The position numbers and the translations under genes are program-made. From the NCBI GenBank assembly GCA_964500725.1, contig CAZCNP010000002.1, forward strand, positions 69,347 to 133,346: a stretch of 64,000 nucleotides of DNA, read 5' to 3'. The stretch is from an uncultured Gammaproteobacteria bacterium (GTDB lineage: Bacteria; Patescibacteriota; Microgenomatia; Daviesbacterales; UBA10151). This document shows, in pieces, positions 1,840 through 44,550 of the stretch (position 1 is the first letter of the stretch; every line of letters starts with the position of its first letter). The notes under the pieces were generated by a model, which worked only from the letters and a program-made list of their open reading frames with translations, was not told the DNA's origin and did no database searches.

Positions 1840-1843
1840 AAGA

Positions 1844-25987: not shown

Positions 25988-27972
25988 ATATATTCCTTCA
26001 AATATTATTAGGCTTAGGATTTTTATTAGTAGTTTTTATTTGTCTTGTTCTGCCCGGCTATGCTATTTTAAGAAAATTTTTATCAGATTTGGATAAACTT
26101 GAACAATTTACAATCTCAAGTATCCTTGGTTTAGTGGTGTTTACTTTAGTTGCATATACTCTAGCGGTTGTTAATTTAAGGTTTTTAATGTGGGTTTTTC
26201 CTATTGCAGGAGTCTGGGTAATTTATAAATTTAGACAAGAAATACTCTCATTTAAATTAAATATCTCTCGTAAGGCAATTTTTCTTACAGTCTTGATTTT
26301 AGGGGTCATAGGGATGGTAGCAGTTAATGCTCCGTCAGGCTTTCCTTATACAAATGGGATATATTTTTATAGCTCACATGGTCACGACGGAATTTGGCAT
26401 ATTGCTTTAATGGAGCATATGAAAAATTCAATATTCCCTTTTCAGAATCCAGAACTAACCGGAGCAAAACTACAAAATTATCATTTTTTTGTTGATCTTT
26501 TAATGTCTGAATTTAGTAGGATGTTTCGTTTTTCTTCCTTGGATATTTATTTTAGATTTATGCCAGTAGTATTTGCAATTTTATTAGGACTTGGCAGTTT
26601 TATATTTGTAAGAGCTTGGAGTAAATCTGAGGCAGCAGGTATTTGGGCAATGATATTTACATATTTTGCAGGTAGTTTTGGGTATTTATTATATGTTCCA
26701 ACACATAAAAGCTTAGGAGGAGAATCAATATTTTGGGTATCTCAAACACAATCGGTTTTGGGTAATCCTCCCCATGCAGCTGCATTTATTATTGCCTCAG
26801 TGTGTTTATTTATATTCTTAAAGTATCTAGCGACTCGAAGGTTAATCTATTTCCTGCTTTGCGCAATTTTGGTAGGTTCGATTATCGAGTTTAAGGTTTA
26901 TGCAGGAGTTCTAATTCTGGGAGGATTTTTACTTGTAGGAATTTATGAATTATTTTTTAAAAAAATATTTAGTACTATTTTATTGTTTTTGACTACATTT
27001 TCTATTTCATTGCTTATATATTTACCTAACAGCCAAAACTCGCAGGATTTTTTGCTTTGGCAACCATGGTGGTATATCAGGACAATGGTTGTTGCATCAG
27101 ATAGGCTCAATTGGTTAGATTTGGAACTTAGAAGGCAGACCTATATTTCAGAGAACAATTGGAAGCGGGTAATACAAGTTGAGGCAACTGCATTTGTTAT
27201 TTTCTTGTTAGGTAATTTGGGGATGAGGTTTTTAGGATTTTGGACTTTTATTAAAAAGATAAAATTAAATTTATTTAAAAGTACTTTTGATATATTTTTT
27301 CTTTCAATTACTTTAGCCTCTTTTTTTATCCCAGTATTTTTTTTGCAAAAGGGTGTTGCGTGGAACTCTATACAATTTAACCAGTATTTTCTGCTATTTT
27401 TTGGCTTTCTGGCAGCAGTTTCAGTAGCTGAAATAATATCTTTTGTTAAAAATAGATTGGCCAAAGTGATTATTTCATTATTAATAATTATTCTTGCTGT
27501 TCCTACCCAAATTGGATTATTGTGGCAGTTTTATTCCAATACTGCGCTTTCGAAAATAACTTATAAAGAGCTTGATGCTTTAAATTTCTTAAAAAATAAA
27601 TCTCCAGAAAAGGCAATCGTATTGACTGCTCCGTTTAATGGTTACGAAAGAGATAAATATACTAATCCTCCAATACCTATATATGCTTGGTATGATACAG
27701 GCTATGTTTCTGCCTTTTCTGGAAAGTCAACTTTAATAGCAGATGAAGAGCAGGTAAACATCATGGGATACGATGTGGAACAATTATTAAAAGAGAGGAA
27801 AGAGGCTTTTGAAAGTGATAATTTTGGGATAATGAATAATTTCTTAAAAAAATATAATATAAATTTTATATACCTTGTTTGGAATCAAAAGATTACAGCC
27901 AATAAAGGGTCCTTAAACGCTGATTTAGTTTTTCAAAATGAAGATGCTAAGGTATTTAAGGTAAGACAATGA
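25984..27972 (+). CDS. Polytopic membrane protein, paralog of the C-terminal domain of the preceding gene (HDGIWHI family); putative glycan polymerase or GT-C transferase.
   Basis: YSSHGHDGIWHIALMEHMKNSIFPFQNPELTGAKLQNYHFFVDLL is the same loop motif. ATGA overlap with the upstream gene. C-terminal soluble domain of about 150 aa. Confidence 0.6.
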   Translation: MNIFLQILLGLGFLLVVFICLVLPGYAILRKFLSDLDKLEQFTISSILGLVVFTLVAYTLAVVNLRFLMWVFPIAGVWVIYKFRQEILSFKLNISRKAIFLTVLILGVIGMVAVNAPSGFPYTNGIYFYSSHGHDGIWHIALMEHMKNSIFPFQNPELTGAKLQNYHFFVDLLMSEFSRMFRFSSLDIYFRFMPVVFAILLGLGSFIFVRAWSKSEAAGIWAMIFTYFAGSFGYLLYVPTHKSLGGESIFWVSQTQSVLGNPPHAAAFIIASVCLFIFLKYLATRRLIYFLLCAILVGSIIEFKVYAGVLILGGFLLVGIYELFFKKIFSTILLFLTTFSISLLIYLPNSQNSQDFLLWQPWWYIRTMVVASDRLNWLDLELRRQTYISENNWKRVIQVEATAFVIFLLGNLGMRFLGFWTFIKKIKLNLFKSTFDIFFLSITLASFFIPVFFLQKGVAWNSIQFNQYFLLFFGFLAAVSVAEIISFVKNRLAKVIISLLIIILAVPTQIGLLWQFYSNTALSKITYKELDALNFLKNKSPEKAIVLTAPFNGYERDKYTNPPIPIYAWYDTGYVSAFSGKSTLIADEEQVNIMGYDVEQLLKERKEAFESDNFGIMNNFLKKYNINFIYLVWNQKITANKGSLNADLVFQNEDAKVFKVRQ

Positions 27973-29594
27973 GAAAAACTATTTTAAGAAAAAAATTGCT
28001 TTTTTTAATTGTGATACTTGGGTTAATACTTCGTATTTTACTCATAGATAGCGCTCCGCCATCATTATACGGAGACGAGCTTACTATTGCTCTAGATGCG
28101 CAATCTTTACTTAAAACAGGGCGTGATCAGTTAGGTAATTTTTTACCGCTTACTTTTTCTATGGGGGCAGGGAGACCAGCGGGGTATGTCTACGGATCCA
28201 TTCCATTTGTAGCATTATTCGGGCCAACCGCCTTAGGAGTCAGAACACTATCAATAATCTCTGGTTTAGCAATTATCATATTACTGTATCTTCTTGGTAG
28301 AAGAGTTCTTGGAGAAAAAACAGGACTTTGTGCAGCTGCCATTGGGGCTATCTCTCCTTGGGATATATCTTTAAGTAGGGGAGGATTTGAAGCCCATCTT
28401 GCCTTATTGTTGGCATTGCTGGGAACTTATCTTTTTTTAAGGGCATCAGAGAAACCTATGTTTTATATATTGTCAGCATTAAGCTTCGGATTGACCCTGC
28501 ACACATATCCTACGTATAAGGTGAGTCTGCTTTTGTTTTTTCCGTTACTGTTTTGGTATCAGGGGGGCAGAAAAATTTTAATGAATGGTAAAAAATATTT
28601 CTTAAGTGGAGTCTTAGTGCTTTTCTTTTTAGGTATTTTATCTTTCAGTCAAACCTTTATTGGCGGGTCAGAAGTCAGATTTTTTAATATAAATATTTTT
28701 TCCCAAAAAGAGTTAAAAAGCTTCATTGAACAAAAAATTAATTTTGAAAGGCAAATATCTAAATTGCCTAAAACTGTTAGAAAATATTTTCATAATAAAC
28801 CGGTCGAATATACAAATGTCTTTATTGACAACTATCTAAAAAACTTTTCACTGGACTTTTTAATATTGCAAGGAGATGGAAATCCCCGCCACAATATGGC
28901 AACTACTGGCCAAATTTATACCGTAGAAATATTTTTGATTATTATTGCAATTTTGACCTTTTGGCAAAAAGAGAAAAGGTTAATATTATTTTTATTGCTT
29001 TGGATTCTTTTAGCGCCAGTTCCCACGGCAATTGTTGATTTGCCACATGCTTTGAGAAGTTCTTTTATGATGCCTCCGTTGATTATACTTTCTGCATTAG
29101 GATTAGTTACAATCCTAAAGTTTCAAAGTAGGATACCACTAGTATTGGTATCTATATTCTTCTTTATTCAGTTTGTATTTTTTATTCAAAAGTTGTATTT
29201 CTTGGCTCCAAACGAATACAGCAACTTTTGGTCGTATCCTGCAAAATTTGCCTCAGAGATTGCACTTGAAAATAGGGAAAAATATGACTTTATAATTCTT
29301 TCTGATAAGATTGAGTCTGTGGAGTTTGCTTACCCTGTTTATTCAAAAACTGATCCAAATTTAATAATTGATCAAAATAAAAATAAGAATATGTTTTTTG
29401 GTTATCGGTTAAAAAAATATGGTAATGTATTTATTGGTAATATTGTAGATACTGGTTTTGAGGAAGCTATTAACAATATTCCAGGTTCTGTTTTATACAT
29501 TGGATCCAAATACGAGGGGAATTCTTTTGTTGATTATGAAATAATTAATGGACTTGATGAACAAGCAGCATTAGTAGTAAAAAAGAAACATTAA
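27969..29594 (+). CDS. ArnT/PMT-family GT-C membrane glycosyltransferase (DE-motif paralog).
   Basis: PPSLYGDELTIALDAQSLLKTGRDQLGNFLP, ISPWDISLSRGGFEAH and LPHALRSSF motifs shared with the genes at 38028, 39695 and 42952. Confidence 0.72.
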   Translation: MRKTILRKKLLFLIVILGLILRILLIDSAPPSLYGDELTIALDAQSLLKTGRDQLGNFLPLTFSMGAGRPAGYVYGSIPFVALFGPTALGVRTLSIISGLAIIILLYLLGRRVLGEKTGLCAAAIGAISPWDISLSRGGFEAHLALLLALLGTYLFLRASEKPMFYILSALSFGLTLHTYPTYKVSLLLFFPLLFWYQGGRKILMNGKKYFLSGVLVLFFLGILSFSQTFIGGSEVRFFNINIFSQKELKSFIEQKINFERQISKLPKTVRKYFHNKPVEYTNVFIDNYLKNFSLDFLILQGDGNPRHNMATTGQIYTVEIFLIIIAILTFWQKEKRLILFLLLWILLAPVPTAIVDLPHALRSSFMMPPLIILSALGLVTILKFQSRIPLVLVSIFFFIQFVFFIQKLYFLAPNEYSNFWSYPAKFASEIALENREKYDFIILSDKIESVEFAYPVYSKTDPNLIIDQNKNKNMFFGYRLKKYGNVFIGNIVDTGFEEAINNIPGSVLYIGSKYEGNSFVDYEIINGLDEQAALVVKKKH

Positions 29595-29597
29595 GAT

Positions 29598-30497
29598 ATG
29601 CAAAACAAAATATCAGTTGTAATAAATGCATTAAATGAAGAGAAAAATATAGCAAAAGCTATAACCTCAGTTGGTTGGGCAAACGAGATTATAGTCTGTG
29701 ATATGCATTCTGGGGATGGTACTGTTGAGACAGCAAAAAAACTTGGAGCAAAAGTCGTCTATCATAAAAAAGAAGAATATGTAGAGCGCGCCCGTAATTT
29801 TGCTATCTCTAAAGCTTCAAATGATTGGGTTTTAATCCTTGACCCTGATGAGCAAATTCCAGAGAGTTTGGCAAAAAGGTTGCAAGAGATTGCTGCAGGC
29901 ATGGAGAGGATAAATTATGTTAGATTGCCTAGAAAGAATATAATTTTTAATTATTATATGCAGTCTGCGATGTGGTGGCCAGATTACAATATAAGATTTT
30001 TTAGAAAAGGTCAGGTAAAGTGGACTAATAAAATTCACAAAGATCCTGAAGTATTTGGGGAAGGGATAGATTTATCGGAAGATGAAAAATGGGCGATTAT
30101 TCATAACCACTATAACTCTTTGATGCAGTTTCTTGAGCGTATGATCAGATACACTAAAATACAGGCAGAGGAACTAGTCCAGGATGGTTATAAGTTTGAC
30201 TGGAAAGACTTAATTAAAAAACCATTAGGGGAATTTTTAAGTAGGTTTTTTGCCAACCGCGGCTTTAGAGATGGTTTGCATGGTTTAGCGCTAAGCTTGC
30301 TTCAATCATTCTCATTTTTAATTGTATATCTCCGAGTTTGGGAAATAGAAAGGTTTCCATCCCAGCAGGTAAATCTTTCAGAGCTTAAGCAAGTAAGTAA
30401 TCAATCTGCGGTTGAAATTAAATATTGGTTTAACTATGCAAATTTATCGAAAAATTCATTCAAGAGGTTTTTTCAAAAAATAAAAAACAAAATCTAA
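29598..30497 (+). CDS. GT2 glycosyltransferase (WaaE/KdtX-like architecture).
   Basis: ISVVINALNEEKNI, EIIVCDMHSGDGT, LDPDEQ (DxD). C-terminal conserved helix GLHGLALSLLQSFSFLIVYLRVWE. Confidence 0.8.
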   Translation: MQNKISVVINALNEEKNIAKAITSVGWANEIIVCDMHSGDGTVETAKKLGAKVVYHKKEEYVERARNFAISKASNDWVLILDPDEQIPESLAKRLQEIAAGMERINYVRLPRKNIIFNYYMQSAMWWPDYNIRFFRKGQVKWTNKIHKDPEVFGEGIDLSEDEKWAIIHNHYNSLMQFLERMIRYTKIQAEELVQDGYKFDWKDLIKKPLGEFLSRFFANRGFRDGLHGLALSLLQSFSFLIVYLRVWEIERFPSQQVNLSELKQVSNQSAVEIKYWFNYANLSKNSFKRFFQKIKNKI

Positions 30498-31298
30498 ATG
30501 CTTAGTGTAATTATTATTAGTAAAAATGAGGAAAGTAGGATTAAAGCCTGTTTGGAATCTGTTAGTTGGGCTGATGAGATTATTGTTGTAGATAATGGGT
30601 CTTTCGATCAAACTTTAGATATTGCAAAAAAATATACCAATAAAATTTTTGAGAGGAGTTTTGATAATTTTGCATCGTGGCGTAATTTCGCTACTGAGAA
30701 GGCGTCGGGTGATTGGTTACTATTTGTAGATCCAGATGAGAGGGTGGTTGATTCTTTGCGAGTTGAGATAGAAGCTATGGTAAGCTTTTCCGATTTTGCC
30801 GCATATGCAATTTCACGAAAAAACATTATTTTTGGGAAGGAAGTTAAATACGGTCCTTTTTGGCCAGATTGGGTAATAAGGTTGATAAAAAAGAGCAGCT
30901 TTGAAGGGTGGGTTGGCAGTGTGCATGAATATCCCAAATTTAATGGCAAGCTGGGGTACAGCAAGAATTCATTGCTTCATCTGACACATCGAAATATTGA
31001 TCAAATTACTCTTAAGAGTTTAGAGTGGTCCAAAATTGATGCAAAGCTTAGATTGGAAATGAACCATCCCAGGATGTCTGGCTGGAGATTTATTAGGATA
31101 TTACTTACTGAAACTTTTAAACAAGGGATTTTAAGGAAGGGTTTTTTTAATGGGGCTATCGGTACGATGGATTCGCTTTTACAGGTTTTCAGCTTGATGA
31201 TAACCTATATTAGGTTATGGGAGATGCAGCAACCGAAGTCATTAAAGGAGAAATATGATCAGTTGGACCAGGATTTAATTAATAATAATTTTAAATAA
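30498..31298 (+). CDS. GT2 glycosyltransferase, paralog of the gene at 29598.
   Basis: LSVIIISKNEESRI, EIIVVDNGSFDQT, VDPDER. C-terminal AIGTMDSLLQVFSLMITYIRLWE. Confidence 0.8.
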   Translation: MLSVIIISKNEESRIKACLESVSWADEIIVVDNGSFDQTLDIAKKYTNKIFERSFDNFASWRNFATEKASGDWLLFVDPDERVVDSLRVEIEAMVSFSDFAAYAISRKNIIFGKEVKYGPFWPDWVIRLIKKSSFEGWVGSVHEYPKFNGKLGYSKNSLLHLTHRNIDQITLKSLEWSKIDAKLRLEMNHPRMSGWRFIRILLTETFKQGILRKGFFNGAIGTMDSLLQVFSLMITYIRLWEMQQPKSLKEKYDQLDQDLINNNFK

Positions 31299-32375: not shown

Positions 32376-33487
32376 AAAAAGTATGGGTTATCTTAATAAT
32401 AGGAGTTTTGATAAGGATTTTATTATCTTATGCTACTTTTCATCCTGATATTGAAGCCATAAGGCAAGGGGGACAGGTTTTTTCAGAGGGACATATTTTA
32501 AATTTATATGACTATAGTTCTGATGCAAATATTCTAAATTATCCCCCTTTAATATACTGGTTTTTTGGAATATTTAATTTAATCTTCGGAAGCACCATAT
32601 GGCTATATAAGTTACCATATTTAGTTTTTGATTTATTATTAGGTTATTTAATCTACAAACTGGTATCTCCAAATAAAGCAATATTTGCCTTTGGGCTTTG
32701 GATATTTAACCCTATTAATTTGTATGCAACTTATATGATGGGTCAGTTTGATATTATTCCTACCTTTTTTTCCTTTCTTTCAATATATTTAGCCTTTAAG
32801 GGCAAACTAAATTGGGCAGCGCTTGCTTTGGGGGGTGGTATTGCTTTTAAGCTATATCCAATATTTTTGATTGTTCCGCTGATGTTGCTGGGGAAAGGGA
32901 TTGGAGCAAAGGTAAAGCTACTAATTCTTTCTGTCTTACCATATATTATTTCAATTCTGCCATATCTTCCCTCGCCAAGCTTTAGGTCAACAGCATTGTT
33001 GGCAAATCAAAGTTCAAAAAGCCTTTATGCTAGTATTCCTGTATCAGGCGGGGAGTCTATAATTTTATTTCCAGCTTTTTTATTACTCTTTTATCTTTTG
33101 ATACATAATTTTAGAATAAAGTTAGAAGCATGGAAATTATATTTAATCCCTCTTCTATTATTTTTTATCTTTACCCATTATCATCCTCAATGGTTAATTT
33201 GGATAACACCATTTTTGGTTTTAGATCTGGCAGTAAATAAATTTAAAAATATCTTGCTAGTTTTAATAATCTTTGGGAGCTGGTTTGGATCGTTGTTTTT
33301 CTTTGATCCATCACTCACGATTGGACTCTTTAGCCCTCTTTTTCCCATATTAAAAGATACTGCAGATATATGGGCATTGCTGCATTTAAATTTAGAATAT
33401 AATTTATCAAGAAGTATATTGCAAACAATTTTTGCTTCTAGTTCAATCTATTTAATCTTCAATTACCTATTTAATAAAGATGCTTAA
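32372..33487 (+). CDS. Polytopic membrane protein, putative GT-C mannosyltransferase-like (DUF2029/GT87- or PIG-M-like).
   Basis: 371 aa, about 10 TM helices. First-loop acidic residues (HPDIEAIRQGG). ATGA overlap with the upstream GT4 gene. Family assignment uncertain. Confidence 0.45.
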   Translation: MKKVWVILIIGVLIRILLSYATFHPDIEAIRQGGQVFSEGHILNLYDYSSDANILNYPPLIYWFFGIFNLIFGSTIWLYKLPYLVFDLLLGYLIYKLVSPNKAIFAFGLWIFNPINLYATYMMGQFDIIPTFFSFLSIYLAFKGKLNWAALALGGGIAFKLYPIFLIVPLMLLGKGIGAKVKLLILSVLPYIISILPYLPSPSFRSTALLANQSSKSLYASIPVSGGESIILFPAFLLLFYLLIHNFRIKLEAWKLYLIPLLLFFIFTHYHPQWLIWITPFLVLDLAVNKFKNILLVLIIFGSWFGSLFFFDPSLTIGLFSPLFPILKDTADIWALLHLNLEYNLSRSILQTIFASSSIYLIFNYLFNKDA

Positions 33488-34949
33488 AAGTGTAAGTTTG
33501 CTTCTAATTTTTAGCTTAATAACATTTTTTTTATTTACTTATAGAATTACAGATGTTCCACCAGGAATTAATGGTGATGAAGCAGCAATTGGCACAAGCG
33601 CGGCATTAATTTCAAAAACGGGATACGACGCACAGCAACAGTTTTTACCTTTATTTACAAATACGATAAATTCTCCGGATTGGAAACAGCCGGTTACTGT
33701 ATATGCTACAGCTTTAGTTTTTAAAATATTTGGAGTTTCATATTTTGCATTGCGGGCCACCAGTGTAATTTTTGTTGTTCTAAGTTTGTTGTTTATCTAT
33801 TTGCTAGTTAAGGAGATAGCAGATACAAAGGTAGCAATAGCAGCTGCTTTCCTTTTTTTAACAACGCCTATTGTAATGATCCAATCACATTTAGCTATAG
33901 AAAATATTGCCCCAGTGCCATTTGTATCTGCTTGGTTATTAATGCTTATCAAATTTACCAAGAAGCAAAATTACAAATTATTAATGCTAGCTGGAGCATT
34001 TTTGGGAATAAGTTTATTTTCTTATTTAGGAATGAGAGTGATTGCTCCAGTGTTTTTTGTGCTTACACTTGTATATGTTTATTATTTAAATAGGGTAACA
34101 AAAGGTCAATATTTAAACACTATTAAATGGTTTTTAGTGGGGTTTGTGCCTTTCATTCTAGTATTATTGCTTTCCAAGTTTAATTATACGGGAGTTTTAT
34201 TAGGGCAATATAGACTATATAAAATTGAAGATTATCAAACATTAATTTTGCCATATTTATCAACTTTTGACCCATCTTTCCTATTCTTAAGGGGTGATTC
34301 AACTCCTTATCACTCAACTGGTAAACAAGGTATGTTTTTGCTTGCAAGTTTACCTATGTTTATTCTGGGGCTGGTAAATATAATAAAAACTAAGAAACCT
34401 ATTCTAATTTTAATACTGATGTCCTTCTTTTTAGCCCCTTTGCTTTTTGGACTAGGTTCTACTATTTATAGAGCAAGCAGACTGCTAGCGATGATTCCAT
34501 TTTATATTGTGATTGCAAGTGTAGGTATACAGCAGATACTTGCAGTTAGGCAGCAACAGGTGCGTAAAGGAATATTGGTAATAGTTACATTACTAATAAG
34601 CTTAAATTTTGTTGATTTTTTGAATGATTATTGGTATCAATATCCTCAAAGGGTAAAAGCAGACTTTGCAAAACCAATACACGATGTTTATAAGGGGTTA
34701 GCAACTACTGCAAAGGAAAAAAACTTAACTCCCTATGCAGAGTATTACCTTTTTAAACAATATCCAGATGCTGAAACTTTCTTTAAATGGATATATTTCC
34801 CCCAGGGCTTATCTGAGTGGTATAGAGAAAAAGAGATCCCTCCACAAAGTATAATTTTGACGGATTTAAGTAATTTTAAGTCCAAAGAAAAAATTAGCAC
34901 TATTAAGGTAGAAGAACTGGATTATTATTTCATAATTCGAACAAAGTGA
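33480..34949 (+). CDS. ArnT/PMT-family GT-C membrane glycosyltransferase (DE-motif paralog).
   Basis: PPGINGDEAAIGTSAALISKTGYDAQQQFLP in the first external loop. 489 aa with about 11 TM helices. Confidence 0.7.
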   Translation: MLKSVSLLLIFSLITFFLFTYRITDVPPGINGDEAAIGTSAALISKTGYDAQQQFLPLFTNTINSPDWKQPVTVYATALVFKIFGVSYFALRATSVIFVVLSLLFIYLLVKEIADTKVAIAAAFLFLTTPIVMIQSHLAIENIAPVPFVSAWLLMLIKFTKKQNYKLLMLAGAFLGISLFSYLGMRVIAPVFFVLTLVYVYYLNRVTKGQYLNTIKWFLVGFVPFILVLLLSKFNYTGVLLGQYRLYKIEDYQTLILPYLSTFDPSFLFLRGDSTPYHSTGKQGMFLLASLPMFILGLVNIIKTKKPILILILMSFFLAPLLFGLGSTIYRASRLLAMIPFYIVIASVGIQQILAVRQQQVRKGILVIVTLLISLNFVDFLNDYWYQYPQRVKADFAKPIHDVYKGLATTAKEKNLTPYAEYYLFKQYPDAETFFKWIYFPQGLSEWYREKEIPPQSIILTDLSNFKSKEKISTIKVEELDYYFIIRTK

Positions 34950-34962
34950 GAATTATAATTTT

Positions 34963-36588: not shown

Positions 36589-37990
36589 ATTTTAGTGCCC
36601 TTAAAATTTGTATCAACCCTAGATAAATAGCTAGATTAACAAAGGGAACGTATAATAAATATCCATACGTTCCTGTTGCGGATAAGAATCCTCCTGCTAT
36701 AAACACAGACAATAGATAAATAACTAATAATTTAGTAATTTTTTTTGATAGATTATATAGTCCTAATATAAATAGTGGAAGGAAAAATAGAGAAATTACA
36801 TTTCTGGTATTAAAAAACAAATTAAAATCCAAATGGGAAAATAGATTATAATTATATTTTATAATAATAGGTCGAAAGAAGCTTGCATATCCAATACCTA
36901 TTTTATTTTTATAAAATCTTCCGAACTCACTGGCAAAATATTCATGTCTTGAAGCTAATTTGTCTGCTTCGAAAGTAGTTAAATGAAATAGATCACGATC
37001 AAAACTATTTAGCAAGGAGATCAGTAGTAAGGCGCTTAATAGAGTGAAGAAGAGCAGTTTGGTAATAATATTATTTCTAATATAACTAAAATAAAGTAGG
37101 ATACTTACCGCAAAAAGAACAAACGTGAAGATTAAGTTAGACTGGAACATTTTATGCAAACTTATATTTATTAACGAGATGGTTGAAATAGCTAGAAGAT
37201 GGTATTTTATTTTAGATACGCTTTGGTCTGTATTAATAAATTGATCATCCTTTATAATGCCAAGATTGTGAAGATATAGTTTTATTATTACCCAAAAGCC
37301 ATCCAAGATAAATTTGGTGCCTTTTAGGAATTTAATGGAAGAAGCCTTTTGATGATACCTTGTGGGAATTGCAATCTCTCCAACAGAAAATCCATGATTT
37401 AACGCAGAGATAGTCATTTCTTGATCAAAAACAAAGTCATTTGAAAATTGATCAAACGGAATTGTTTTAAGAAGAGTACTAGAATATGCACGAAATCCAG
37501 AAAAATGTTCTGTAAAATTTACTCCCAGTAGAACGTTTTGGATTAAGCATACAATTCGATTTACATAATACTTGAGTGGAGGCATGCCGCCTGCTAAAGC
37601 CCCATTTTTGTTAGCAATACGGCTCCCAAACATAAAATCATACCTACCTCTTGCAATTGGATTTATTAAATCCTCTATCATTGATGCATCATATTGATAA
37701 TCGGGATGAAGCATGACAACAATGTCCGGTTTTAATTTTAAAGCTTCCTTATAACATGTTTTTTGATTTGCCCCATAACCTAAATTATTGATATGTTCAA
37801 ATACTTTAATGCCGAGTTTTCTTGCAACTTTAATGGTCTGGTCGCTGCTGCCGTCATCAACCAAAATAATATATTTTTTAAGGTGTTTAGGGATTTCATG
37901 ATAGGTATCGTAAACAGTTTTTGCTGCATTAAAAGCAGGCATTACTATTACAATTTTAGGGGTTTTCCTATGTAAAATAGCGCTTGGCAT
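36575..37990 (-). CDS. GT2 DPM1-like glycosyltransferase with a C-terminal polytopic membrane extension of about 230 aa.
   Basis: IVIVMPAFNAAKTV, ILVDDGSSDQT, MLHPDYQYD (DxD-like). Residues about 240-471 are hydrophobic TM segments. Confidence 0.78.
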   Translation of the reverse strand: MPSAILHRKTPKIVIVMPAFNAAKTVYDTYHEIPKHLKKYIILVDDGSSDQTIKVARKLGIKVFEHINNLGYGANQKTCYKEALKLKPDIVVMLHPDYQYDASMIEDLINPIARGRYDFMFGSRIANKNGALAGGMPPLKYYVNRIVCLIQNVLLGVNFTEHFSGFRAYSSTLLKTIPFDQFSNDFVFDQEMTISALNHGFSVGEIAIPTRYHQKASSIKFLKGTKFILDGFWVIIKLYLHNLGIIKDDQFINTDQSVSKIKYHLLAISTISLINISLHKMFQSNLIFTFVLFAVSILLYFSYIRNNIITKLLFFTLLSALLLISLLNSFDRDLFHLTTFEADKLASRHEYFASEFGRFYKNKIGIGYASFFRPIIIKYNYNLFSHLDFNLFFNTRNVISLFFLPLFILGLYNLSKKITKLLVIYLLSVFIAGGFLSATGTYGYLLYVPFVNLAIYLGLIQILRALKYVKV

Positions 37991-38027
37991 ACGATATATA
38001 TTTGTAGGATAATTGATTTAGAATAAT
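37991..38027. promoter_or_regulatory. Putative divergent promoter region (37 bp) between the GT2 gene on - and the GT-C gene on +.
   Basis: Contains TAGGATAAT / TAGAATAAT -10-like elements. Very compact. Confidence 0.25.
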
Positions 38028-39698
38028 ATGACAACACTTAATCCAATGGATAGAAAATCTTTACTCTCTCTTGCAATTATCATCCTTCTATCATTCATGT
38101 TAAGGTTTTATCAAGTTACCAATAACCCTCCTGCTTTAAATTGGGATGAGGTGTCTATTGGCTATAATGCCTTCTCGATCCTAAAAACAGGTAAAGACGA
38201 ATGGAATAAACCGTTTCCGATACATTTTAAAGCCTATGGTGAATATAAGCTGCCTATGCAAATTTATGCCAGTATCCCAGGGATATACGTTTTTGGTCTT
38301 AATGAATTAGGGGTAAGAGTTACTCCGGTTATTTATGGAACGCTAACAGTATTGGTTATGTTCTTTTTAGGAAGAGCGCTTTTTGTAAGCCAATTGGCTG
38401 GTTTGGCTGCCGCATTTTTATTGGGGGTTTCTCCGTGGCATATTCAGCTTACTAGAGGTTCTTTTGAGGCCTCTTTTGCAACTTTTTGGGTAGTTTTGGG
38501 AGTTTGGTTTTTAGTTAAAGGTTTTAGAGATCAAAAGTGGTTGGTTTTTTCAATGATTCCTTTTGCCTTATCTGTTTTTACCTATAATTCAGCAAGAATT
38601 TTTTCACCGTTATTTTTATTTACAATTTTAATTATATATAGAAAAACACTATCTAAATTTAAAAAAGCTATTTCTGCTGCAATTTTGCTTTTTACAATTC
38701 TACTTATTCCACTTGTACCTTTTTTATTTAGTGGAGATAGAAGCGCAAGGTATAAATTAGTCAGCATTACAGATGACCCAGGGTTGATTCCGCGCATCAA
38801 TGAAAACAGAGGGCTCTCAAAATTGTCTTCACCACTTCCTAAATTAATTCATAACAAAGTAACATACGTAACATTTTATTTTACTAGAAATTATTTGGCT
38901 CACTTTAGTCCACAGTTTCTTTTTATCTCAGGGGCGCCTCATAAACAACATCATGTTCAGAATATGGGACAACTTTATTTGTTTCAAGCACCGTTTCTTT
39001 TGCTAGGTTTGTATGCTCTTATTGCCTTTAAAAATAAGTATAAAGGATTACTGTTTACTTGGGTGTTGTTAGCATTTGTACCTGTATCTGTAACCAATGA
39101 TAGTATCCCGCACGCTTTAAGGACATTAATAGCAGCTCCTTTTTATCAATTAGTTTCTGGGTATGGCTTTTTAGTATCTTTAAATTGGTTAAAGAAATAC
39201 TCAAAAAATATTAAAATATCTTTTGGTGCAATAGTGCTCACTATTATAGTGATTAGTTTAGGTTATTATCTAAATCAATATTACAAAATTTATCCAAATA
39301 AATACTCTAGAGATTGGCAATATGGGTATAAGCAAGTAGTAGATTATATAAATGAGCATAAGGATGAATACGATATGATAGTTTTTTCCCGACATTATGG
39401 TGAGCCTCATATGTTTACCTTATTTTTCTTAAACTATGATCCTGCGAAGTATCAAGCTGATCCAAACTTAAATAGAGTAGAAACAAATAATTGGGTATGG
39501 GTGCTACAGTTTAATAAGTTTTATTTTCCAGACTTGGGTGATAAAGGAACGAAGCAAAGAGATATACTGGAGCAATATAAAGGTAAACGCATATTATTTA
39601 TAGGAAAAAATGGGGATTTCCCATATGGCGGCAGAAAACTAAAAGAGATTTACTTTCTTGATGGTAGTTCAGCCTTTCTAATAGTTGATAACAAATGA
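38028..39698 (+). CDS. ArnT/PMT-family GT-C membrane glycosyltransferase (WDE-motif close paralog A).
   Basis: LNWDEVSIGYNAFSILKTGKDEWNKPFPIHFKAYGEYKLP, VSPWHIQLTRGSFEAS, IPHALRTL. C-terminal soluble domain with RDWQYGYKQVVDY. Confidence 0.75.
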   Translation: MTTLNPMDRKSLLSLAIIILLSFMLRFYQVTNNPPALNWDEVSIGYNAFSILKTGKDEWNKPFPIHFKAYGEYKLPMQIYASIPGIYVFGLNELGVRVTPVIYGTLTVLVMFFLGRALFVSQLAGLAAAFLLGVSPWHIQLTRGSFEASFATFWVVLGVWFLVKGFRDQKWLVFSMIPFALSVFTYNSARIFSPLFLFTILIIYRKTLSKFKKAISAAILLFTILLIPLVPFLFSGDRSARYKLVSITDDPGLIPRINENRGLSKLSSPLPKLIHNKVTYVTFYFTRNYLAHFSPQFLFISGAPHKQHHVQNMGQLYLFQAPFLLLGLYALIAFKNKYKGLLFTWVLLAFVPVSVTNDSIPHALRTLIAAPFYQLVSGYGFLVSLNWLKKYSKNIKISFGAIVLTIIVISLGYYLNQYYKIYPNKYSRDWQYGYKQVVDYINEHKDEYDMIVFSRHYGEPHMFTLFFLNYDPAKYQADPNLNRVETNNWVWVLQFNKFYFPDLGDKGTKQRDILEQYKGKRILFIGKNGDFPYGGRKLKEIYFLDGSSAFLIVDNK

Positions 39699-41251
39699 GC
39701 TCTAGACAAAGTTTGTTTATTTTGCTGCTAATATTGCTTCTTTTTGTTTTTACCCGTTTATATAAAATTACAGAAATTCCCCCATCAGTTTATTGGGATG
39801 AGGCTTCTATTGGCTATAATGCTTATTCTATTTTAAAGACAGGACAAGATGAGTGGGGAAGGAATTTTCCTTTAGGTTTTGAAGCATTTGGAGAGTATAA
39901 GCTTCCCGTTTATATATACACCACAGCATTTTTTATAAAGCTTTTTGGTTTAAATGAATTTGCTGTAAGAATTTCTGCAGTCCTATTTTCTTTAGGAGTA
40001 GTGATAGTAAGTTTTCTACTTGCAAAAAGGATAACTAAAGATAGCAAAGTAGGGATGCTGACAGCTTTTTTTGTAACAATTTCCCAATGGTTTTTTATCA
40101 TTAGCAGAACAGGATTTGAAGCGACTACAGGATTATTCTTCTTTATATCTGGAATTTATTTTTTCATCTCAGCTATGGAAGAGCAAAAAAGGCTTTTAAT
40201 ACTATCTGTTATTAGCTTTATTTTAACCCTATATAGCTATAACAGTTTTTTGATAATTACTCCGGTGACCTTACTGATTTTAATAGTTGTATACTTTAAG
40301 CAGTTTAGCTTTTATATTCAAAAGAACGTAATATTCTCATTTATTTGCTTTATTATCCTAATTATAGGTGGGGTTGGAGTTGTGCATTCTATTACTTCAG
40401 GTAGGATTGCAAGACTTGATGAAGTGGGAATTTCTGGTGCTTATAATCATCGAAAATATCAGACGCTTGTTACAGTTGCTGCCAATTACCTCGCTCATTT
40501 TAATCCTAAGTTCCTCTTTTTGACAGGAGATGGAAATGGAAGAAGCCAACAGCCTAAGTTTGGTCAGGTAAGTTTAGCTCATTTACCTCTTTTATTTCTC
40601 GGAATTATCTATAGCCTTCAGCAAAAAAGAAAAGAATACAAGCTTATCTTATTATTACTTTTGATAGCACCAATTCCGGCAAGTATAACTAGAGAATCCC
40701 CTCATGCCCTGCGTTCTATATCAGCAGTGCCTTTTATCGCCTTCATTTCATCCTTGGGTGTATTAAAGTTAACATCATTTATTAATAAGAATTTTTATAC
40801 AAAAATTATTATTGGGGTAACGCTGATAGCTTTTTTAGGTTACTACCAGGCCTTTATTTCCAATTATGCTAAAGAAACAGCAAATGACTGGCAATATGGT
40901 TATAAGGCATTTTATAGCAAATATAAATCAAAATTTCCCCAATTTGATAATATATTAATATCAGACAGGTTTAATCAACCGTATATATTTACTCTCTTTT
41001 ATCTACAATATGATCCTGTTAAGTTTAGATCTGAAGTTGTTTATAATACTTCTAACCGCCGTAAAACCTCACTGGTTAAATCATTTGATAAATTTATTTT
41101 TAGGGATATTGATTACTACCAGATACCTTCTGGAAAAAATTTAATTTTTACTCATATTACTGATAAGATGGATGAAATTAAATGGAAAGAAACAATTTTA
41201 AATCCTGATGGGAGCATAGGAGGGTATGTGTATGAATATGAAAAGCGGTAG
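39695..41251 (+). CDS. ArnT/PMT-family GT-C membrane glycosyltransferase (WDE-motif close paralog B).
   Basis: VYWDEASIGYNAYSILKTGQDEWGRNFPLGFEAFGEYKLP, SPHALRSIS, NDWQYGYKAFYSKY. ATGA overlap with the upstream paralog. Confidence 0.75.
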   Translation: MSSRQSLFILLLILLLFVFTRLYKITEIPPSVYWDEASIGYNAYSILKTGQDEWGRNFPLGFEAFGEYKLPVYIYTTAFFIKLFGLNEFAVRISAVLFSLGVVIVSFLLAKRITKDSKVGMLTAFFVTISQWFFIISRTGFEATTGLFFFISGIYFFISAMEEQKRLLILSVISFILTLYSYNSFLIITPVTLLILIVVYFKQFSFYIQKNVIFSFICFIILIIGGVGVVHSITSGRIARLDEVGISGAYNHRKYQTLVTVAANYLAHFNPKFLFLTGDGNGRSQQPKFGQVSLAHLPLLFLGIIYSLQQKRKEYKLILLLLLIAPIPASITRESPHALRSISAVPFIAFISSLGVLKLTSFINKNFYTKIIIGVTLIAFLGYYQAFISNYAKETANDWQYGYKAFYSKYKSKFPQFDNILISDRFNQPYIFTLFYLQYDPVKFRSEVVYNTSNRRKTSLVKSFDKFIFRDIDYYQIPSGKNLIFTHITDKMDEIKWKETILNPDGSIGGYVYEYEKR

Positions 41252-41260
41252 AGGTTTATA

Positions 41261-42880
41261 CTAAAAGTTAGGGAGGCTTGGAATGGGTAGATTTCCCCAA
41301 TGTGATACTAAGTAAGGTATAAATAAGTGGTTAAAAGTAATAATTTTTTGAATAATTATTATCCAAAAGGCAAGCCATATAATTTTAGTTAAATAGTGTT
41401 TATGAAATACTAGCCTTAAGATAAGTAGAGTGCAGAATATAAGAAAAGAATATCTATAATGGGTGATGCTGGGTTGCAGATTTAATGCGACTCTGCCCCA
41501 ATAATAGCTACTAGAAAAAGGAATAAAGAAGAATGCCAGAGCCGTAGCTATGTTAGGATCTTTATATATTTGCCAAATTACTATTGCGCTGCAACATGCA
41601 AAAAAAGGAATCATTGATATGAAATACCATGGATAATTAGGACTTCCTAAGAAAAGCACCAATAGAAAGTGGAATAACAACGGGATTGTTAAAAATTGTA
41701 AGTTTTCTTGTTTTTTGAGGGATACTATTAAAAAGCTAAGGAGTCCCCAAACCCACCAACCATCCGTGGGGAAATCTTTAAATTTCAGAGCCTCTAACAT
41801 CGAAACTAGTTTTAAGGCGCCAAAGTAACTCCTTTCGGTGTTAGCCCTCAGGATATCTAAGAATAAATCCATTTGTAACCAAAAACCCCAAAGAAAATAA
41901 GAGACAATTGGGATCAGCATGGCAAGAAAGAAAGTTATTAAGTACCTTTTAGGAATTTTATTTATAAATAGTAAAATTGTAGATCCAACCAGGAATCCTA
42001 ATGTAGGCTCTTTTACTAATAGTCCTAATCCACCAATGAACCCTGATAAAGTTAAAGCAATAAAAGTTATTTTTGAGGAAAGATCTTTTTTATATGCCTG
42101 TATAGCTCCAAATAAAATTATTAAATGGAGTAAGATAAATGGTGGTACTGCATTTTCCAGAAAAGCAGTCCTAGTTGCTAATAAATAAGTAGGTACGGTT
42201 GAATAAATGATTAAAGAGAGCGATGCGATCCAAGGGTTTTGTGTAATTAAATAAGTAAATAAGAATAATAAAATTGCTGTTATTACGGCTAAAACTAAAG
42301 TGGGCTTTCTAAACTCAGCTGGTTTTACCTGGTTAAACTCCTTGATGTTACTTCCTTCTCCCAGGCTATAAATTAATCCTCCGAGTGGAGGGTGGTCAAA
42401 AAAGGGTGCAACAAAAAACATATGCTCTAAGCCCTTGTTGTAATTTATTTGCTCTATGGCTATGAACGGATTTTTATTTTTATGGAATTCTTCTAAAGTA
42501 ATAATTTTGCCTTCGGATACAAGCTTAAACCCTATTAAATTAGCTCCCTTGGATTGATATTGAGGTTTATCATAGATATGCCTAAAGGTAACCCAACCGA
42601 TTGGTAAGCCGGTTGATCTTAAACTTAAACCTTGCCAAACATAATTATATTCATCAGTAATCGTCGGCGAAGGAACGGTTTCATATCCAAACCATCTATA
42701 AAATAAGCTTTGGTATAAAATTATAGCTGACACAATTAAAGCGACCAAGAGGCTAACTATTTTTAAATAAGGTAATGTTGACTTCTGGAAGGGTAATAAA
42801 GATTTAATTTTTTTGTACAAAAATAATAATCGATTATTTGCTAAACTAAGCCCGATTTGGTGTATTTTCTTAAATGGCAT
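41261..42880 (-). CDS. Polytopic membrane protein, putative GT-C glycosyltransferase (DE-motif).
   Basis: First external loop TITDEYNYVWQGLSLRSTG. 539 aa with at least 10 TM helices. Convergent with the upstream gene, 9 bp apart. Confidence 0.55.
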   Translation of the reverse strand: MPFKKIHQIGLSLANNRLLFLYKKIKSLLPFQKSTLPYLKIVSLLVALIVSAIILYQSLFYRWFGYETVPSPTITDEYNYVWQGLSLRSTGLPIGWVTFRHIYDKPQYQSKGANLIGFKLVSEGKIITLEEFHKNKNPFIAIEQINYNKGLEHMFFVAPFFDHPPLGGLIYSLGEGSNIKEFNQVKPAEFRKPTLVLAVITAILLFLFTYLITQNPWIASLSLIIYSTVPTYLLATRTAFLENAVPPFILLHLIILFGAIQAYKKDLSSKITFIALTLSGFIGGLGLLVKEPTLGFLVGSTILLFINKIPKRYLITFFLAMLIPIVSYFLWGFWLQMDLFLDILRANTERSYFGALKLVSMLEALKFKDFPTDGWWVWGLLSFLIVSLKKQENLQFLTIPLLFHFLLVLFLGSPNYPWYFISMIPFFACCSAIVIWQIYKDPNIATALAFFFIPFSSSYYWGRVALNLQPSITHYRYSFLIFCTLLILRLVFHKHYLTKIIWLAFWIIIIQKIITFNHLFIPYLVSHWGNLPIPSLPNF

Positions 42881-42951
42881 ATCTATAATAATGTAGCCAA
42901 AATATGGAGAGTTAGCAAGTACAAATGATAAATGATATGCTTATTTAATAA
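42881..42951. promoter_or_regulatory. Putative divergent promoter region (71 bp).
   Basis: AT-rich with a TATAAT hexamer (ctataataatg). Flanked by divergent GT-C genes. Confidence 0.25.
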
Positions 42952-44550
42952 GTGAATAACTGGTTGTACAAATCAATATTAATACTTATATTAATTATAT
43001 CGTTTGCTTTGAGGGTATATAAATTGGATTCAGTTCCTCCTGCTTTATCGTGGGATGAAGCAGCAAATGGTTATAACGCCTATACTATTGCAAACTGGGG
43101 GAGAGATGAATATGGAAAATTTTTGCCTGCATATTTTAGATCGTTTGCAGATGATAAGCATCCGGTGCATATTTATGCAACAGCAGTTAGTGTTAAGTTA
43201 TTAGGCCTATCAGAATTTAGTACTAGGTTACCTGCTGCTGTTTTTGGGACTCTTAGTATACTATTAATTTTCTTTCTGGCTAGAATGTTATTTAATAATA
43301 ATTTAGTCGGTCTAATTGCCTCTTTTTTCCTTGCTGTATCTCCTTATCATTTTCACTTTTCAAGAACTAATCACGAAGCTGTGCCAACCTTATTTTTCTT
43401 TTTGCTGGGATTAGTGTTATTTTTTAAGTCTTTAAAAAAAGGGGGATTCTATTTGCCAGGATCAGTTTTAAGTTTTGTAATTGCCTTTCTTGGTTATCAT
43501 ACATCAAAGGTAGTTTTGCCAATGATATTAGTGCTATTGTTTTTTCTTTGGAGAAAAACTCTTCTAAAAAATCAACAAGGTTTGCTAATTTCTTTTATAA
43601 TTATTGTATTACTTGCTTTGCATTTGTTTCTTAATCCACAACTTTTAGGTCTTGCCAGAATTAATCAGACCTCATTAAACAAACAGACAATCGAGTCAAC
43701 TCAGCTTTTCAAATTAACAAATAATGAATTTTTAGGGAGAGTAAATATTACTTTGGAGCAGTACTCTTGGCATTTTTATCCGCAATATTTGTTTGTCTCT
43801 GGGGACAAGAATGCCCGTTTATCAGCTCAAGGTGCAGGAGAATTTTATTGGATTGATGCTATATTTTTTATCTTTGGTCTTGCTTATTTGCTGTATAAGA
43901 GGTCAAAGGAAGGGGTGCTCCTCATATCATGGGCTTTAATTGCTCCTCTTCCATCAAGCTTAGTAGGAGAAGCGCCGCATGCTGCAAGGGCAATGTTTAT
44001 GATGGGAAGCTTTCATCTAATTTCTGCTTTGGGGTTGTATTTTATCATTAAATTACTTAAGAGCAAGATATTTCAAGTATCGTTTTTGGTACTTACAGTT
44101 GCGACTTTAATAATTTTATTTCAAGGATTTTTAAAATATTATTTTGGTGAATATGCCAGCAGGTACGCAATAGAATGGCAATATGGTATGAAACAGATTG
44201 TTGAGTATGTTAAAGATCATAAAGAATATGATCAAGTTTTCATGACTGATGCCAGATCTCAGCCTTACATATTTTTTCTATATTACTTAAAGCCAGATTG
44301 GGGGAATTATTTAAGTTCTGTTATATATAACAATGCAGAGAGTAACAGAAGCTATAATACTGTTTCTGCCTATGATAGGTATTATTTTGGAGGTTGGGAT
44401 CCTCTGGCAAGCTTTCCTAGTCCAGGCGTACTTTATATATTGACGCCTAGCCAATACGACGGATTAATGCATAAATCCACTTTTGATGTAAAAAAGGTTA
44501 TATACTATCCTAATGGAGTGACTGCATATTTCTTAGTCAGTGTTAAATAA
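42952..44550 (+). CDS. ArnT/PMT-family GT-C membrane glycosyltransferase (WDE-motif close paralog C).
   Basis: GTG start. LSWDEAANGYNAYTIANWGRDEYGKFLPAYFRSFADDKHPVHIY, VSPYHFHFSRTNHEAV, APHAARAM, IEWQYGMKQIVEYV. Confidence 0.72.
   Translation: MNNWLYKSILILILIISFALRVYKLDSVPPALSWDEAANGYNAYTIANWGRDEYGKFLPAYFRSFADDKHPVHIYATAVSVKLLGLSEFSTRLPAAVFGTLSILLIFFLARMLFNNNLVGLIASFFLAVSPYHFHFSRTNHEAVPTLFFFLLGLVLFFKSLKKGGFYLPGSVLSFVIAFLGYHTSKVVLPMILVLLFFLWRKTLLKNQQGLLISFIIIVLLALHLFLNPQLLGLARINQTSLNKQTIESTQLFKLTNNEFLGRVNITLEQYSWHFYPQYLFVSGDKNARLSAQGAGEFYWIDAIFFIFGLAYLLYKRSKEGVLLISWALIAPLPSSLVGEAPHAARAMFMMGSFHLISALGLYFIIKLLKSKIFQVSFLVLTVATLIILFQGFLKYYFGEYASRYAIEWQYGMKQIVEYVKDHKEYDQVFMTDARSQPYIFFLYYLKPDWGNYLSSVIYNNAESNRSYNTVSAYDRYYFGGWDPLASFPSPGVLYILTPSQYDGLMHKSTFDVKKVIYYPNGVTAYFLVSVK

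Follow-up and report, generated by a model that had tools for sequence, protein, structure and literature searches.

The locus and its host

The DNA analysed here (the window) is a 64-kb stretch of contig CAZCNP010000002.1 from assembly GCA_964500725.1, with ~33% G+C, nearly gap-free coding and a predominance of plus-strand genes. Positions 27969-44550 carry an array of genes for polytopic glycosyltransferases (GTs) of the GT-C class, of the type recognised by the Pfam family PMT_2, six of which form one full-length subfamily (27969, 33480, 34963-, 38028, 39695 and 42952; hereafter the core subfamily). Genes are named by their start coordinate in the window, a trailing "-" marking the minus strand (e.g. 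34963-, 41261-). The array occupies the central part of a ~60-kb glycan locus, which starts at ~2.9 kb and continues to the window end (Table 1). An original prediction, made from the sequence, had described the array as an expansion of ArnT/PMT-like enzymes, and every open reading frame (ORF) on which it relied is present at its coordinates. The genes are real; they encode divergent, uncharacterised new members of a known enzyme class, and public databases already list them under GT39.

The host is of the type of Candidatus Daviesbacteria, tiny uncultured groundwater-type bacteria. The closest relatives of the 38028 protein, 67-80% identical, come from Candidatus Daviesbacteria (Patescibacteria group, Microgenomates group); they are labelled "glycosyltransferase family 39 protein" at NCBI, and many homologs are "Ara4N transferase-like" at JGI. 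For comparison, 12 genome loci (L005-L016) were collected, giving 13 Daviesbacteria genomes with the window and 63 further core-subfamily ORFs, hence 69 sequences with the six window paralogs. Six of these loci (L005, L007, L008, L011, L014 and L015), syntenic and 67-74% identical, belong to metagenome-assembled genomes titled "uncultured Gammaproteobacteria bacterium (binchicken ...)"; since they match Daviesbacteria in gene content and synteny, these titles are probably wrong.

The core subfamily is very large in metagenomes, as a profile of the six paralogs retrieves 7,140 clusters (50% identity) at E <= 1e-30 among 1.84 billion representative proteins. One JGI metagenome protein (P0416, 1391 aa) has two stretches that match the core-subfamily profile, the best being residues 719-1192, and may be a tandem GT-C fusion. 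A search of viral contigs for relatives in serotype-conversion-like cassettes found none. With regard to the literature, a full-text search for GT-C, GT39 and ArnT-like enzymes or oligosaccharyltransferases in the candidate phyla radiation (CPR), Patescibacteria, Microgenomates or Daviesbacteria yielded nothing relevant, and the CPR is not mentioned in a bioRxiv paper that deals with the bacterial ancestry of the ALG enzymes.

Table 1. Genes of the array (upper part) and of the surrounding glycan locus (lower part), in window coordinates. Bit scores come from scans of 45 window ORFs, with the gathering cut-offs for Pfam; aa, amino acids; TM, transmembrane helix; DE, Asp-Glu dipeptide with its neighbours.
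Position	Strand	Length (aa)	Predicted product	Domain evidence	DE context
27969-29594	+	541	Core-subfamily PMT_2-type GT-C	PF13231 45.4 bits	YGDELTI
29598-30497, 30498-31298	+		Tandem GT2 pair	PF00535	
31299-32375	+		Cytoplasmic GT4 (Glycos_transf_1); syntenic orthologs 54-66% identical	PF00534 86 bits	
32372-33487	+	371	Candidate GT-C, polytopic, ~10 hydrophobic segments; syntenic	Sub-threshold: PMT_2 24.3 bits (cut-off 26.1), PIG-M 22.3 bits (cut-off 23.4)	
33480-34949	+	489	Core-subfamily PMT_2-type GT-C	PF13231 54.4 bits, PF02366 27.6 bits	NGDEAAI
34963-36588	-	541	Core-subfamily PMT_2-type GT-C	PF13231 34.8 bits	HQDEVSQ
36575-37990	-		GT2 with C-terminal six-helix membrane domain (six hydrophobic segments)	PF00535	
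38028-39698	+	556	Core-subfamily GT-C; ~11 predicted TM, N-in/C-out; ~125-aa C-terminal alpha/beta domain		NWDEVSI
39695-41251	+	518	Core-subfamily GT-C; orthogroup in 12/13 genomes	PMT 38.9 bits	YWDEASI
41261-42880	-	539	Divergent PMT_2-like GT-C; accessory gene between 39695 and 42952		ITDEYNY
42952-44550	+	532	Core-subfamily GT-C; orthogroup in 12/13 genomes	PMT_2 61.2 bits	SWDEAAN
44540-45328	+		GT2 translationally coupled to 42952; orthologs 65-73% identical	PF00535 80 bits	
2874-7424	+		RmlA-like, RmlB-like, RmlC, RmlD and GDP-mannose-dehydratase-family genes	Pfam	
7489-8676	+		GT2 fused to GtrA/DPMS-type membrane domain	Pfam	
8673 (start)	-		Candidate GT-C	PMT_2/PMT 18 bits, sub-threshold	
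9877-12072	+	731	Fusion of GT2 (residues 1-230) and PMT_2-type GT-C (residues 235-731)	PF00535 104 bits, PF13231 48 bits	LGDEGRD (C-terminal half)
12069-12806	+		ArnC/PgfS-like GT2	PgfS 84 bits, ArnC 79 bits, both under cut-off	
12862-14385	+	507	Distant PMT_2-type GT-C	PF13231 45.2 bits; hmmsearch with A2, E 9e-8	FADEAIY
14392-21058	+	566, 564, 559, 567	Four tandem YfhO/PTPS_related GT-Cs (14392, 16043, 17709, 19355)	PF10131 32-65 bits	
21063-22535	+		Wzx-like (Polysacc_synt_3) flippase	PF13440 188 bits	
22535-25987	+	1150	Polytopic, fold-level GT-C	No Pfam match	
25984-27972	+	662	Polytopic; modelled	No Pfam match	
45234 (start)			GT4		
46325-47554	+		PIG-V-like (Mannosyl_trans2) GT-C	PF04188 44.6 bits (cut-off 22.4)	
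47542-48828			Second Wzx-like flippase	PF13440 55.7 bits	
48734 (start)			ArnC/DPM1/GtrB-like GT2		
49591 (start)			GT4		
50710-52521	-	603	Large polytopic protein	No Pfam match over cut-off	
52537-54249	-		NodU/CmcH-type carbamoyltransferase		
54354 (start)			GT2, second subgroup		
55189-57189	+		GT4-methyltransferase fusion		
57205 (start)	-		GT2, second subgroup		
58257 (start)	-		UDP-GlcNAc 2-epimerase		
59428-62139	+	903	Large polytopic protein	15-bit match to AftD GT-C domain, under cut-off	
62172 (start)			GT4		

Family membership and conserved residues

A DE dipeptide had been claimed for nine genes, the eight PMT_2-type genes and relatives at 12862 and 27969-44550 and the C-terminal half of 9877, and all nine translations do carry an Asp-Glu a few residues past the first hydrophobic helix. 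Pfam PMT_2 (PF13231) and/or PMT (PF02366) matches lie over the gathering cut-off in eight of them, with E values from 1e-8 to 2e-16, namely 9877 (C-terminal half), 12862, 27969, 33480, 34963-, 38028, 39695 and 42952; PF02366 itself reaches its cut-off in six (9877 C-terminal half, 12862, 33480, 38028, 39695 and 42952). Both the Pfam profiles and the fold comparison place the proteins inside the GT-C clan, as PMT_2-type enzymes. The dipeptide is also kept in the orthologs. Among the 69 core-subfamily sequences from 13 genomes, and in the residue numbering of 38028, D40 is found in 68 and E41 in 67, while D57, P64, Y80 and E147 are invariant and R97 and R365 are conserved in 67 and 62 sequences, respectively.

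The assignment of this motif to a GT39/GT83 (PMT/ArnT) logic did not survive. An acidic DxD/DE motif in the first extracytoplasmic loop (EL1) characterises the GT-C superfamily as a whole, and four conserved extracytoplasmic-loop motifs have been described for all GT-C enzymes (PMC6801728). The conserved outer-face residues of the core subfamily agree with these four motifs. Being common to all GT-Cs, the first-loop motif is therefore no specific evidence for GT39 or GT83. Furthermore, none of the nine genes matches an NCBIfam ArnT model at E up to 0.01, and the curated Pmt equivalog NF058602 is matched by 39695 alone, which scores 20 bits where the cut-off is 800. The best NCBIfam matches are to the archaeal Agl23 subfamily and reach at most 52 bits (42952, 51.7 bits), with the cut-off at 126. 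The genes encode PMT_2-type GT-C enzymes, but membership in ArnT or Pmt proper is not demonstrable.

The remaining DE-bearing gene, 41261-, has no Pfam match even at E = 1. Its protein has a large insertion in EL1, of ~50-70 aa, and contains the motif FFDHPPLGG. PF13231 or PF02366 is found in many of the 79 homologs of 41261-, and a comparison of its family profile with that of the 38028 family (hhalign) gives 93.7% probability and an E value of 1.9e-7, with DE aligned on DE. Within the 41261- family, D76 and E77 are invariant in 23 sequences.

Predicted fold and candidate catalytic residues

The AlphaFold2 model of 38028, based on 29 aligned sequences, is confident, with a predicted local distance difference test (pLDDT) of 88.6 and a predicted template modelling score (pTM) of 0.88. 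It has a structured EL1 with a helix (39-54) and a beta-hairpin (67-74), a long outer region (EL4) at 226-317 and a C-terminal alpha/beta domain at 426-556. The predicted outer face carries the conserved acidic and basic residues, with D40-E41 and D57 in EL1, E147 at the border of EL2 and TM4, and R365 in the last short loop. A local match to EL4 of the 38028 family was also seen at the head of the window, where residues 37-119 of a membrane-anchored CAP/SCP-domain protein (1805-2719, plus strand) score 18 bits and include "NYWAHF" against "NYLAHF"; it may reflect hydrophobic bias or chance.

In Foldseek searches with the 38028 model, AglB, STT3 and PglB rank first (E ~6e-9). The fold comparison gave scores of 22.4 for ArnT (423 residues, 11% identity), 21.0 for STT3B, 20.8 for ALG12, 18.7 for AglB, 18.1 for PglB, 17.5 for Pmt4, 16.8 for PIG-M and 14.6 for AftA. 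At the sequence level, the 38028-family profile matches PDB entries of ArnT (E 2.8e-4) and STT3 (E 7e-3) only; PDB searches with 38028 alone (phmmer) and with the 41261-family profile found nothing. In the alignment of the 38028 family with ArnT, E147 falls on the Asp of "NTLDMT", which by our own count we take to be residue 158 of the ArnT literature.

Some or all of the paralogs could instead be non-catalytic, acting as flippase-associated proteins (Agl23/TIGR03663 type) or as scaffolding subunits of hetero-oligomers. Known GT-Cs form heterodimers, such as Pmt1-Pmt2 and EmbA-EmbB, both of which are among the PDB entries matched in the 38028 fold comparison, and the best NCBIfam match of several paralogs is indeed named "flippase activity-associated protein Agl23". 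However, these Agl23 scores are all far under the cut-off, and every orthogroup keeps the full putative catalytic residue set, which would be unexpected for non-catalytic subunits. We consider this explanation very unlikely.

Paralogy and shared architecture

The proposed array of GT-C paralogs is confirmed. In an all-versus-all BLASTP comparison and an alignment of the six core paralogs (A1), full-length relatedness is limited to these six genes, which are 22-37% identical; 12862 and the C-terminal half of 9877 are less closely related and match chiefly over the N-terminal 200-250 residues, and 41261- is divergent. The closest members are 38028, 39695 and 42952, with mutual identities of 31-36% (36% between 38028 and 39695, which overlap by 4 bp), and 27969 is 28-31% identical to each of these over its full length. 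This trio had been described as near-identical in architecture, which applies to the architecture itself but not to the sequences, whose divergence is that of old paralogs rather than of recent copies.

The motifs thought to be shared by the whole array have a more restricted distribution. WQYG[YM]K, located just past the last membrane helix, is confined to the trio, being degenerate in 27969 and absent from 33480 and 34963-. The PHALRS motif is present as PHA[LA]R in four of the six core paralogs, and only its Arg is found in all six.

Orthologs are 40-74% identical across genomes, as against 22-36% for paralogs, which implies that the duplications predate the diversification of these genomes and that each copy has been retained. 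When segments of four orthogroups were compared, EL1 was 76% identical within and 49% between orthogroups, EL4 60% and 25%, and the C-terminal domain 60% and 23%, with about a quarter of the positions of EL4 and the C-terminal domain gapped between orthogroups. Different specificities of the paralogs, as proposed from the loops after the DE motif, remain a reasonable expectation, but EL1 is the best conserved of these segments (49% against 23-25%), and EL4 and the C-terminal domain are the better places to look for such differences.

Gene order across genomes

All 12 loci share synteny with the window between 29598 and 49591, and synteny is also found in L017, a 56%-identical genome. Clustering of the core subfamily yields at least 11 orthogroups across genomes. 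Those of 38028, 39695 and 42952 occur in 12-13 of the 13 genomes, and the others in one to seven. The array has two variable slots, one between 33480 and 38028 and the other between 39695 and 42952. In the window, these are occupied by a minus-strand cassette of GT-C and GT2 (34963-/36575-) and by 41261-, respectively; in other genomes, they hold different paralogs, or a GT2 with a YfhO-like gene.

The genes outside the trio illustrate this patchiness. Orthologs of 27969 (49-65% identical) are found in L005 and L011, and those of 33480 (43-52%) in six loci, of which five cluster with it, so that this orthogroup is present in 6/13 genomes. Just three other genomes have orthologs of 34963- (42-44%), there on the plus strand. 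For 41261-, none of the 12 loci has an ortholog at the same position, and its best matches among them, ~25-28% identical, lie upstream of 38028 in L005, L011 and L015. The GT2 neighbours of the array are more widely kept: the pair 29598 and 30498, paralogs of 44540 (30-32% identity), is syntenic in 10 of the 12 loci, and the adjacency of 42952 and 44540, which overlap by 11 bp at the stop of the former, is kept in 11/11 loci.

The two-gene cassette formed by 34963- and 36575- lies 37 bp from the divergent gene 38028 and is inverted relative to L009, L010 and L013, where it is on the plus strand with the GT2 followed by the GT-C. An invertible element at 34963-37990 was considered and rejected: none of the inverted repeats flanks the cassette, and the repeats found are short, AT-rich chance ones. 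The inversion is therefore treated as a fixed rearrangement. The GT2 of the cassette shares 25% identity with the 9877 N-terminal domain, and among NCBIfam models it fits AglJ, PpgS and dolichyl-P-hexose transferase best, in each case under cut-off; it is a candidate polyprenyl-phosphate-sugar synthase partner.

The surrounding glycan locus

The expansion of GT-Cs goes beyond what the original prediction had counted. The 64 kb contain 16 supported GT-C genes, comprising nine of the PMT_2 type or related to it, four YfhO-like, the PIG-V-like 46325 and the fold-level members 22535 and 25984, and the tally rises to as many as 20 with 8673-, 32372, 50710- and 59428. The last two of these are possibly further GT-Cs or polymerases. 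The four YfhO/PTPS_related proteins share 30-40% identity and have a DD motif after TM1 in each; this second expanded family of GT-Cs immediately precedes a Wzx-like flippase, as it also does in L017. YfhO is known as a GT-C of multi-component glycosylation systems (PMC8035078, PMC5836110).

Two groups of GT2s accompany these enzymes. The first is ArnC/DPM1/GtrB-like and has five members (7489, the N-terminal half of 9877, 12069, 36575- and 48734), the four others being homologous to the N-terminal domain of 9877, which matches ArnC (1e-17), DPMS (5e-16) and GtrB (2e-11) in the PDB. In 9877, which belongs to the same system although it lies outside 27969-44550, this domain is joined to a GT-C; the fusion is direct evidence for the cooperation of an ArnC-like GT2 with a PMT_2 GT-C in this locus. 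The second subgroup consists of 29598, 30498, 44540, 54354 and 57205-; its likeness to GmaR and SunS comes from one member, 44540, whose best PDB matches are the flagellin O-GlcNAc transferase GmaR of Listeria (E 2e-16) and the peptide S-glycosyltransferase SunS. The group of 29598, 30498 and 44540 hints at protein-directed glycosylation. The idea that the adjacent GT2s are DPM1-like accordingly applies to the five genes of the first group, but not to these three.

With regard to the sugars, the presence of a carbamoyltransferase and a GT4-methyltransferase fusion suggests that the product contains carbamoylated and methylated sugars.

The oligosaccharyltransferase-like neighbours 25984 and 22535

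Upstream of the array, 25984 overlaps the start of 27969 by 4 bp with its stop. According to its model, the protein has a GT-C fold like that of STT3/PglB/AglB, and its C-terminal domain matches as well. Database entries of the orthologs read "hypothetical protein", and the exact sequence has no name there. Pfam gives no significant match over 26 members of its family, and none even at E = 1 for the window protein; the few weak matches of the other members fall into assorted unrelated families, the best of them at E 0.004. PDB sequence searches with 25984 or with a profile of its C-terminal domain retrieved no match, including STT3, PglB and AglB. Nevertheless, 23 of the 25 sequences of its orthogroup have W-Y-[DE]-T-G-Y (or W-Y-D-T-A-Y) 50 residues past the last TM helix, a motif that resembles the WWDYG(Y) signature of oligosaccharyltransferases (OSTs). 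The preceding gene, 22535, is 31% identical to 25984 over the membrane and C-terminal parts, with an extra extracytoplasmic N-terminal domain of ~480 aa and a degenerate motif (IYDSTAY). The order 22535-25984-PMT_2 is kept in L005 and in L017, where the YfhO-likes and Wzx precede it as in the window.

These two genes raise the question of whether the locus is a bacterial counterpart of the eukaryotic and archaeal pathway for lipid-linked oligosaccharides. Cytoplasmic GT4s and GT2s would build the oligosaccharide, a Wzx-like protein would flip it, a dozen or more outer-face GT-Cs of PMT_2-, YfhO-, PIG-M- and PIG-V-like types would extend it with sugars taken from polyprenyl-phosphate-monosaccharides, in the manner of ALG3/9/12/6/8/10, and 25984/22535 would transfer the glycan en bloc to proteins. 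The conserved motif of the 25984 orthogroup, the 4-bp overlap with the first array gene and the conserved gene order all fit this scheme. However, neither 25984 nor its C-terminal domain has a sequence match to STT3, PglB, AglB or Pfam, the motif of 22535 is degenerate, the equivalence to WWDYG comes from likeness and not superposition, and no sequon or acceptor evidence was found. The core enzymes themselves share with STT3/PglB/AglB (GT66) the top Foldseek matches of the 38028 model, but no window gene has a Pfam STT3 match, WQYGYK of 38028 directly follows the last TM in contrast to the WWDYG loop, and the donor expected from the context for a 38028-type enzyme is a single sugar linked through a mono-phosphate. 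We regard this scheme as unlikely. If it were true, Daviesbacteria, and probably other Microgenomates, would carry a new OST lineage and the most GT-C-rich glycosylation pathway known in bacteria.

Proposed function

The GT-Cs of 27969-44550, together with 9877 and 12862, are predicted to be active, inverting, GT-C-fold enzymes of the PMT_2 type, with ~11 TM helices, an N-in/C-out topology and an extracytoplasmic C-terminal domain after the last helix. On balance, the probable role of each orthogroup is to extend a surface glycoconjugate by a defined sugar or linkage, with a polyprenyl-phosphate-sugar as the donor. In this model, the ArnC/DPM1/GtrB-like GT2s would charge polyprenyl phosphate with single sugars in the cytoplasm, the GtrA-type domain of 7489, the Wzx-like 21063 and 47542, or both would flip the lipid-linked sugars, and each GT-C orthogroup would transfer its sugar to a distinct position of the glycoconjugate. 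The likeliest target would be a product of this 60-kb locus itself, namely a glycopolymer that contains rhamnose and is anchored in the wall or membrane. The conserved portion of the structure would come from the trio, with strain-specific decoration added by the patchy paralogs (34963- with 36575-, 41261-, and others found only in other genomes). The analyses demonstrate the family, the fold, the conserved motifs, the synteny and the gene fusion, whereas the donor class and the order of the reactions we infer; the acceptor, be it a wall polymer, a protein or a lipid-linked intermediate, is a guess.

The co-location of all three classes matches a GT2/flippase/GT-C system (PMC8035078), with a putative functional coupling between them, and the dTDP-rhamnose pathway genes at the head of the locus are consistent with a supply of the sugar. 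Several observations weigh against this model. In an NCBIfam scan of the nine genes (E up to 0.01), none reaches the cut-off of any model, so that no function is transferable by orthology. The domain scans of the window revealed no initiating phosphoglycosyltransferase, LCP-type ligase or recognisable Wzy polymerase. None of the analyses run identified an acceptor or donor, and no experimental knowledge of Daviesbacteria surface glycans was found in the full-text literature. Additionally, the GT2s that directly adjoin the core array (29598, 30498 and 44540) resemble GmaR/SunS and not lipid-sugar synthases, and the OST-like look of 22535 and 25984 points to protein glycosylation.

Comparison with known systems

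The closest parts list is found in Gram-positive bacteria, where the polyprenyl-phosphate-sugar produced by a GT2 is flipped by a protein of the GtrA or Wzx type, and a GT-C of the PMT_2 or YfhO type then uses it outside the cell to decorate teichoic acids or rhamnose polysaccharides (PMC8035078, PMC5836110). The CsbB/GtcA/YfhO, GtlA/GtlB and GacI/GacK/GacL systems have the same components as the window, which contains rhamnose genes in the same locus; GtlB of Listeria is a PMT_2 protein, and the window has the PMT_2 and YfhO types together. Conversely, each of those characterised systems is described as having one GT-C, whereas the Daviesbacteria locus has at least 16, with at least 11 orthogroups of one subfamily across genomes. 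The window showed neither teichoic-acid nor LCP genes, and the likeness to the systems of GtlB, GacL and YfhO lies in the shared parts rather than in established sequence orthology.

The protein mannosyltransferases (Pmt/PMT/POMT, GT39) share with the window proteins a DE in the first extracytoplasmic loop and an 11-TM topology model (PMC6801728), as well as the PF02366 match of six genes and the "family 39" label of the orthologs at NCBI. The window proteins differ from them in having no MIR domain and in their long EL4 and C-terminal domain, which are unrelated to those of Pmt. This likeness brings up direct protein O-glycosylation, in which sugars would pass from polyprenyl-phosphate to Ser/Thr residues of proteins that are secreted or exposed on the surface, such as pilins, S-layer proteins or exoenzymes, the paralogs either recognising different protein substrates or adding successive sugars to a protein-bound glycan. 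Such a role would fit the PF02366 matches over cut-off, the DE motif as in Pmt1 (PMC6801728), the many secreted proteins glycosylated by bacterial GT39 enzymes (PMC6151902, PMC11727336) and the resemblance of neighbouring GT2s to protein glycosyltransferases. Nonetheless, the score against the Pmt equivalog is far below its cut-off, ArnT, STT3 and ALG12 fit the fold better than Pmt, no candidate acceptor protein was identified, and the locus is otherwise like a polysaccharide cluster, with its rml genes, Wzx-like flippases, GT4s and carbamoyltransferase. Direct O-glycosylation therefore seems rather unlikely.

ArnT (undecaprenyl-phosphate-L-Ara4N:lipid A transferase, GT83; PDB 5EZM/5F15) is the one protein in the PDB that the 38028-family profile matches significantly by sequence, the PMT_2 Pfam family being common to both. 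Both have an acidic EL1 residue, an acidic residue at the position of the "NTLDMT" Asp, an extracytoplasmic C-terminal domain and an ArnC-like GT2 partner, which in 9877 is fused to the GT-C. Modification of a membrane lipid in the manner of ArnT, with aminoarabinose or another sugar going to lipid A or to a glycolipid anchor, could account for this fusion and for the "Ara4N transferase-like" labels. On the other hand, identity to ArnT is only 11%, with ~11 predicted TM helices as against 13 and many co-resident paralogs instead of one gene; the nine genes have no NCBIfam ArnT match. ArnA-, ArnB- and ArnD-type domains are absent from the 45 scanned window ORFs, in which ArnC-like GT2 domains are present, and the window showed no lipid A biosynthesis genes. 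To our knowledge, Patescibacteria are regarded as lacking lipopolysaccharide and are presumed to have no lipid A. At least 11 orthogroups are also hard to square with a single lipid target, and an ArnT-like role appears exceedingly improbable.

The mycobacterial cell-wall GT-Cs (EmbA/B/C, AftA-D, PimE and Mpt) belong to other Pfam and CAZy families, and their structural similarity to 38028 is below that of ArnT and STT3. Their genes are spread over a genome of >4 Mb, unlike those of Daviesbacteria, which are concentrated in one ~60-kb locus in genomes whose largest contigs are 0.6-0.77 Mb.

Implications

At least 16 GT-Cs in ~60 kb, in genomes with largest contigs of 0.6-0.77 Mb, represent a large investment in the building of extracytoplasmic glycans. 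Cells of the Patescibacteria/CPR are thought to live attached to other microbes. The conserved trio and the variable cassettes point to a conserved core structure with strain-specific decoration, a pattern expected of a surface under host-recognition or phage pressure. The advance lies in the scale and in the core-plus-cassette organisation within a very small genome, along with the adjoining OST-like family, and not in the principle. The locus provides a defined gene set with candidate catalytic residues for heterologous expression, and 25984 is a candidate for a new OST-like family.

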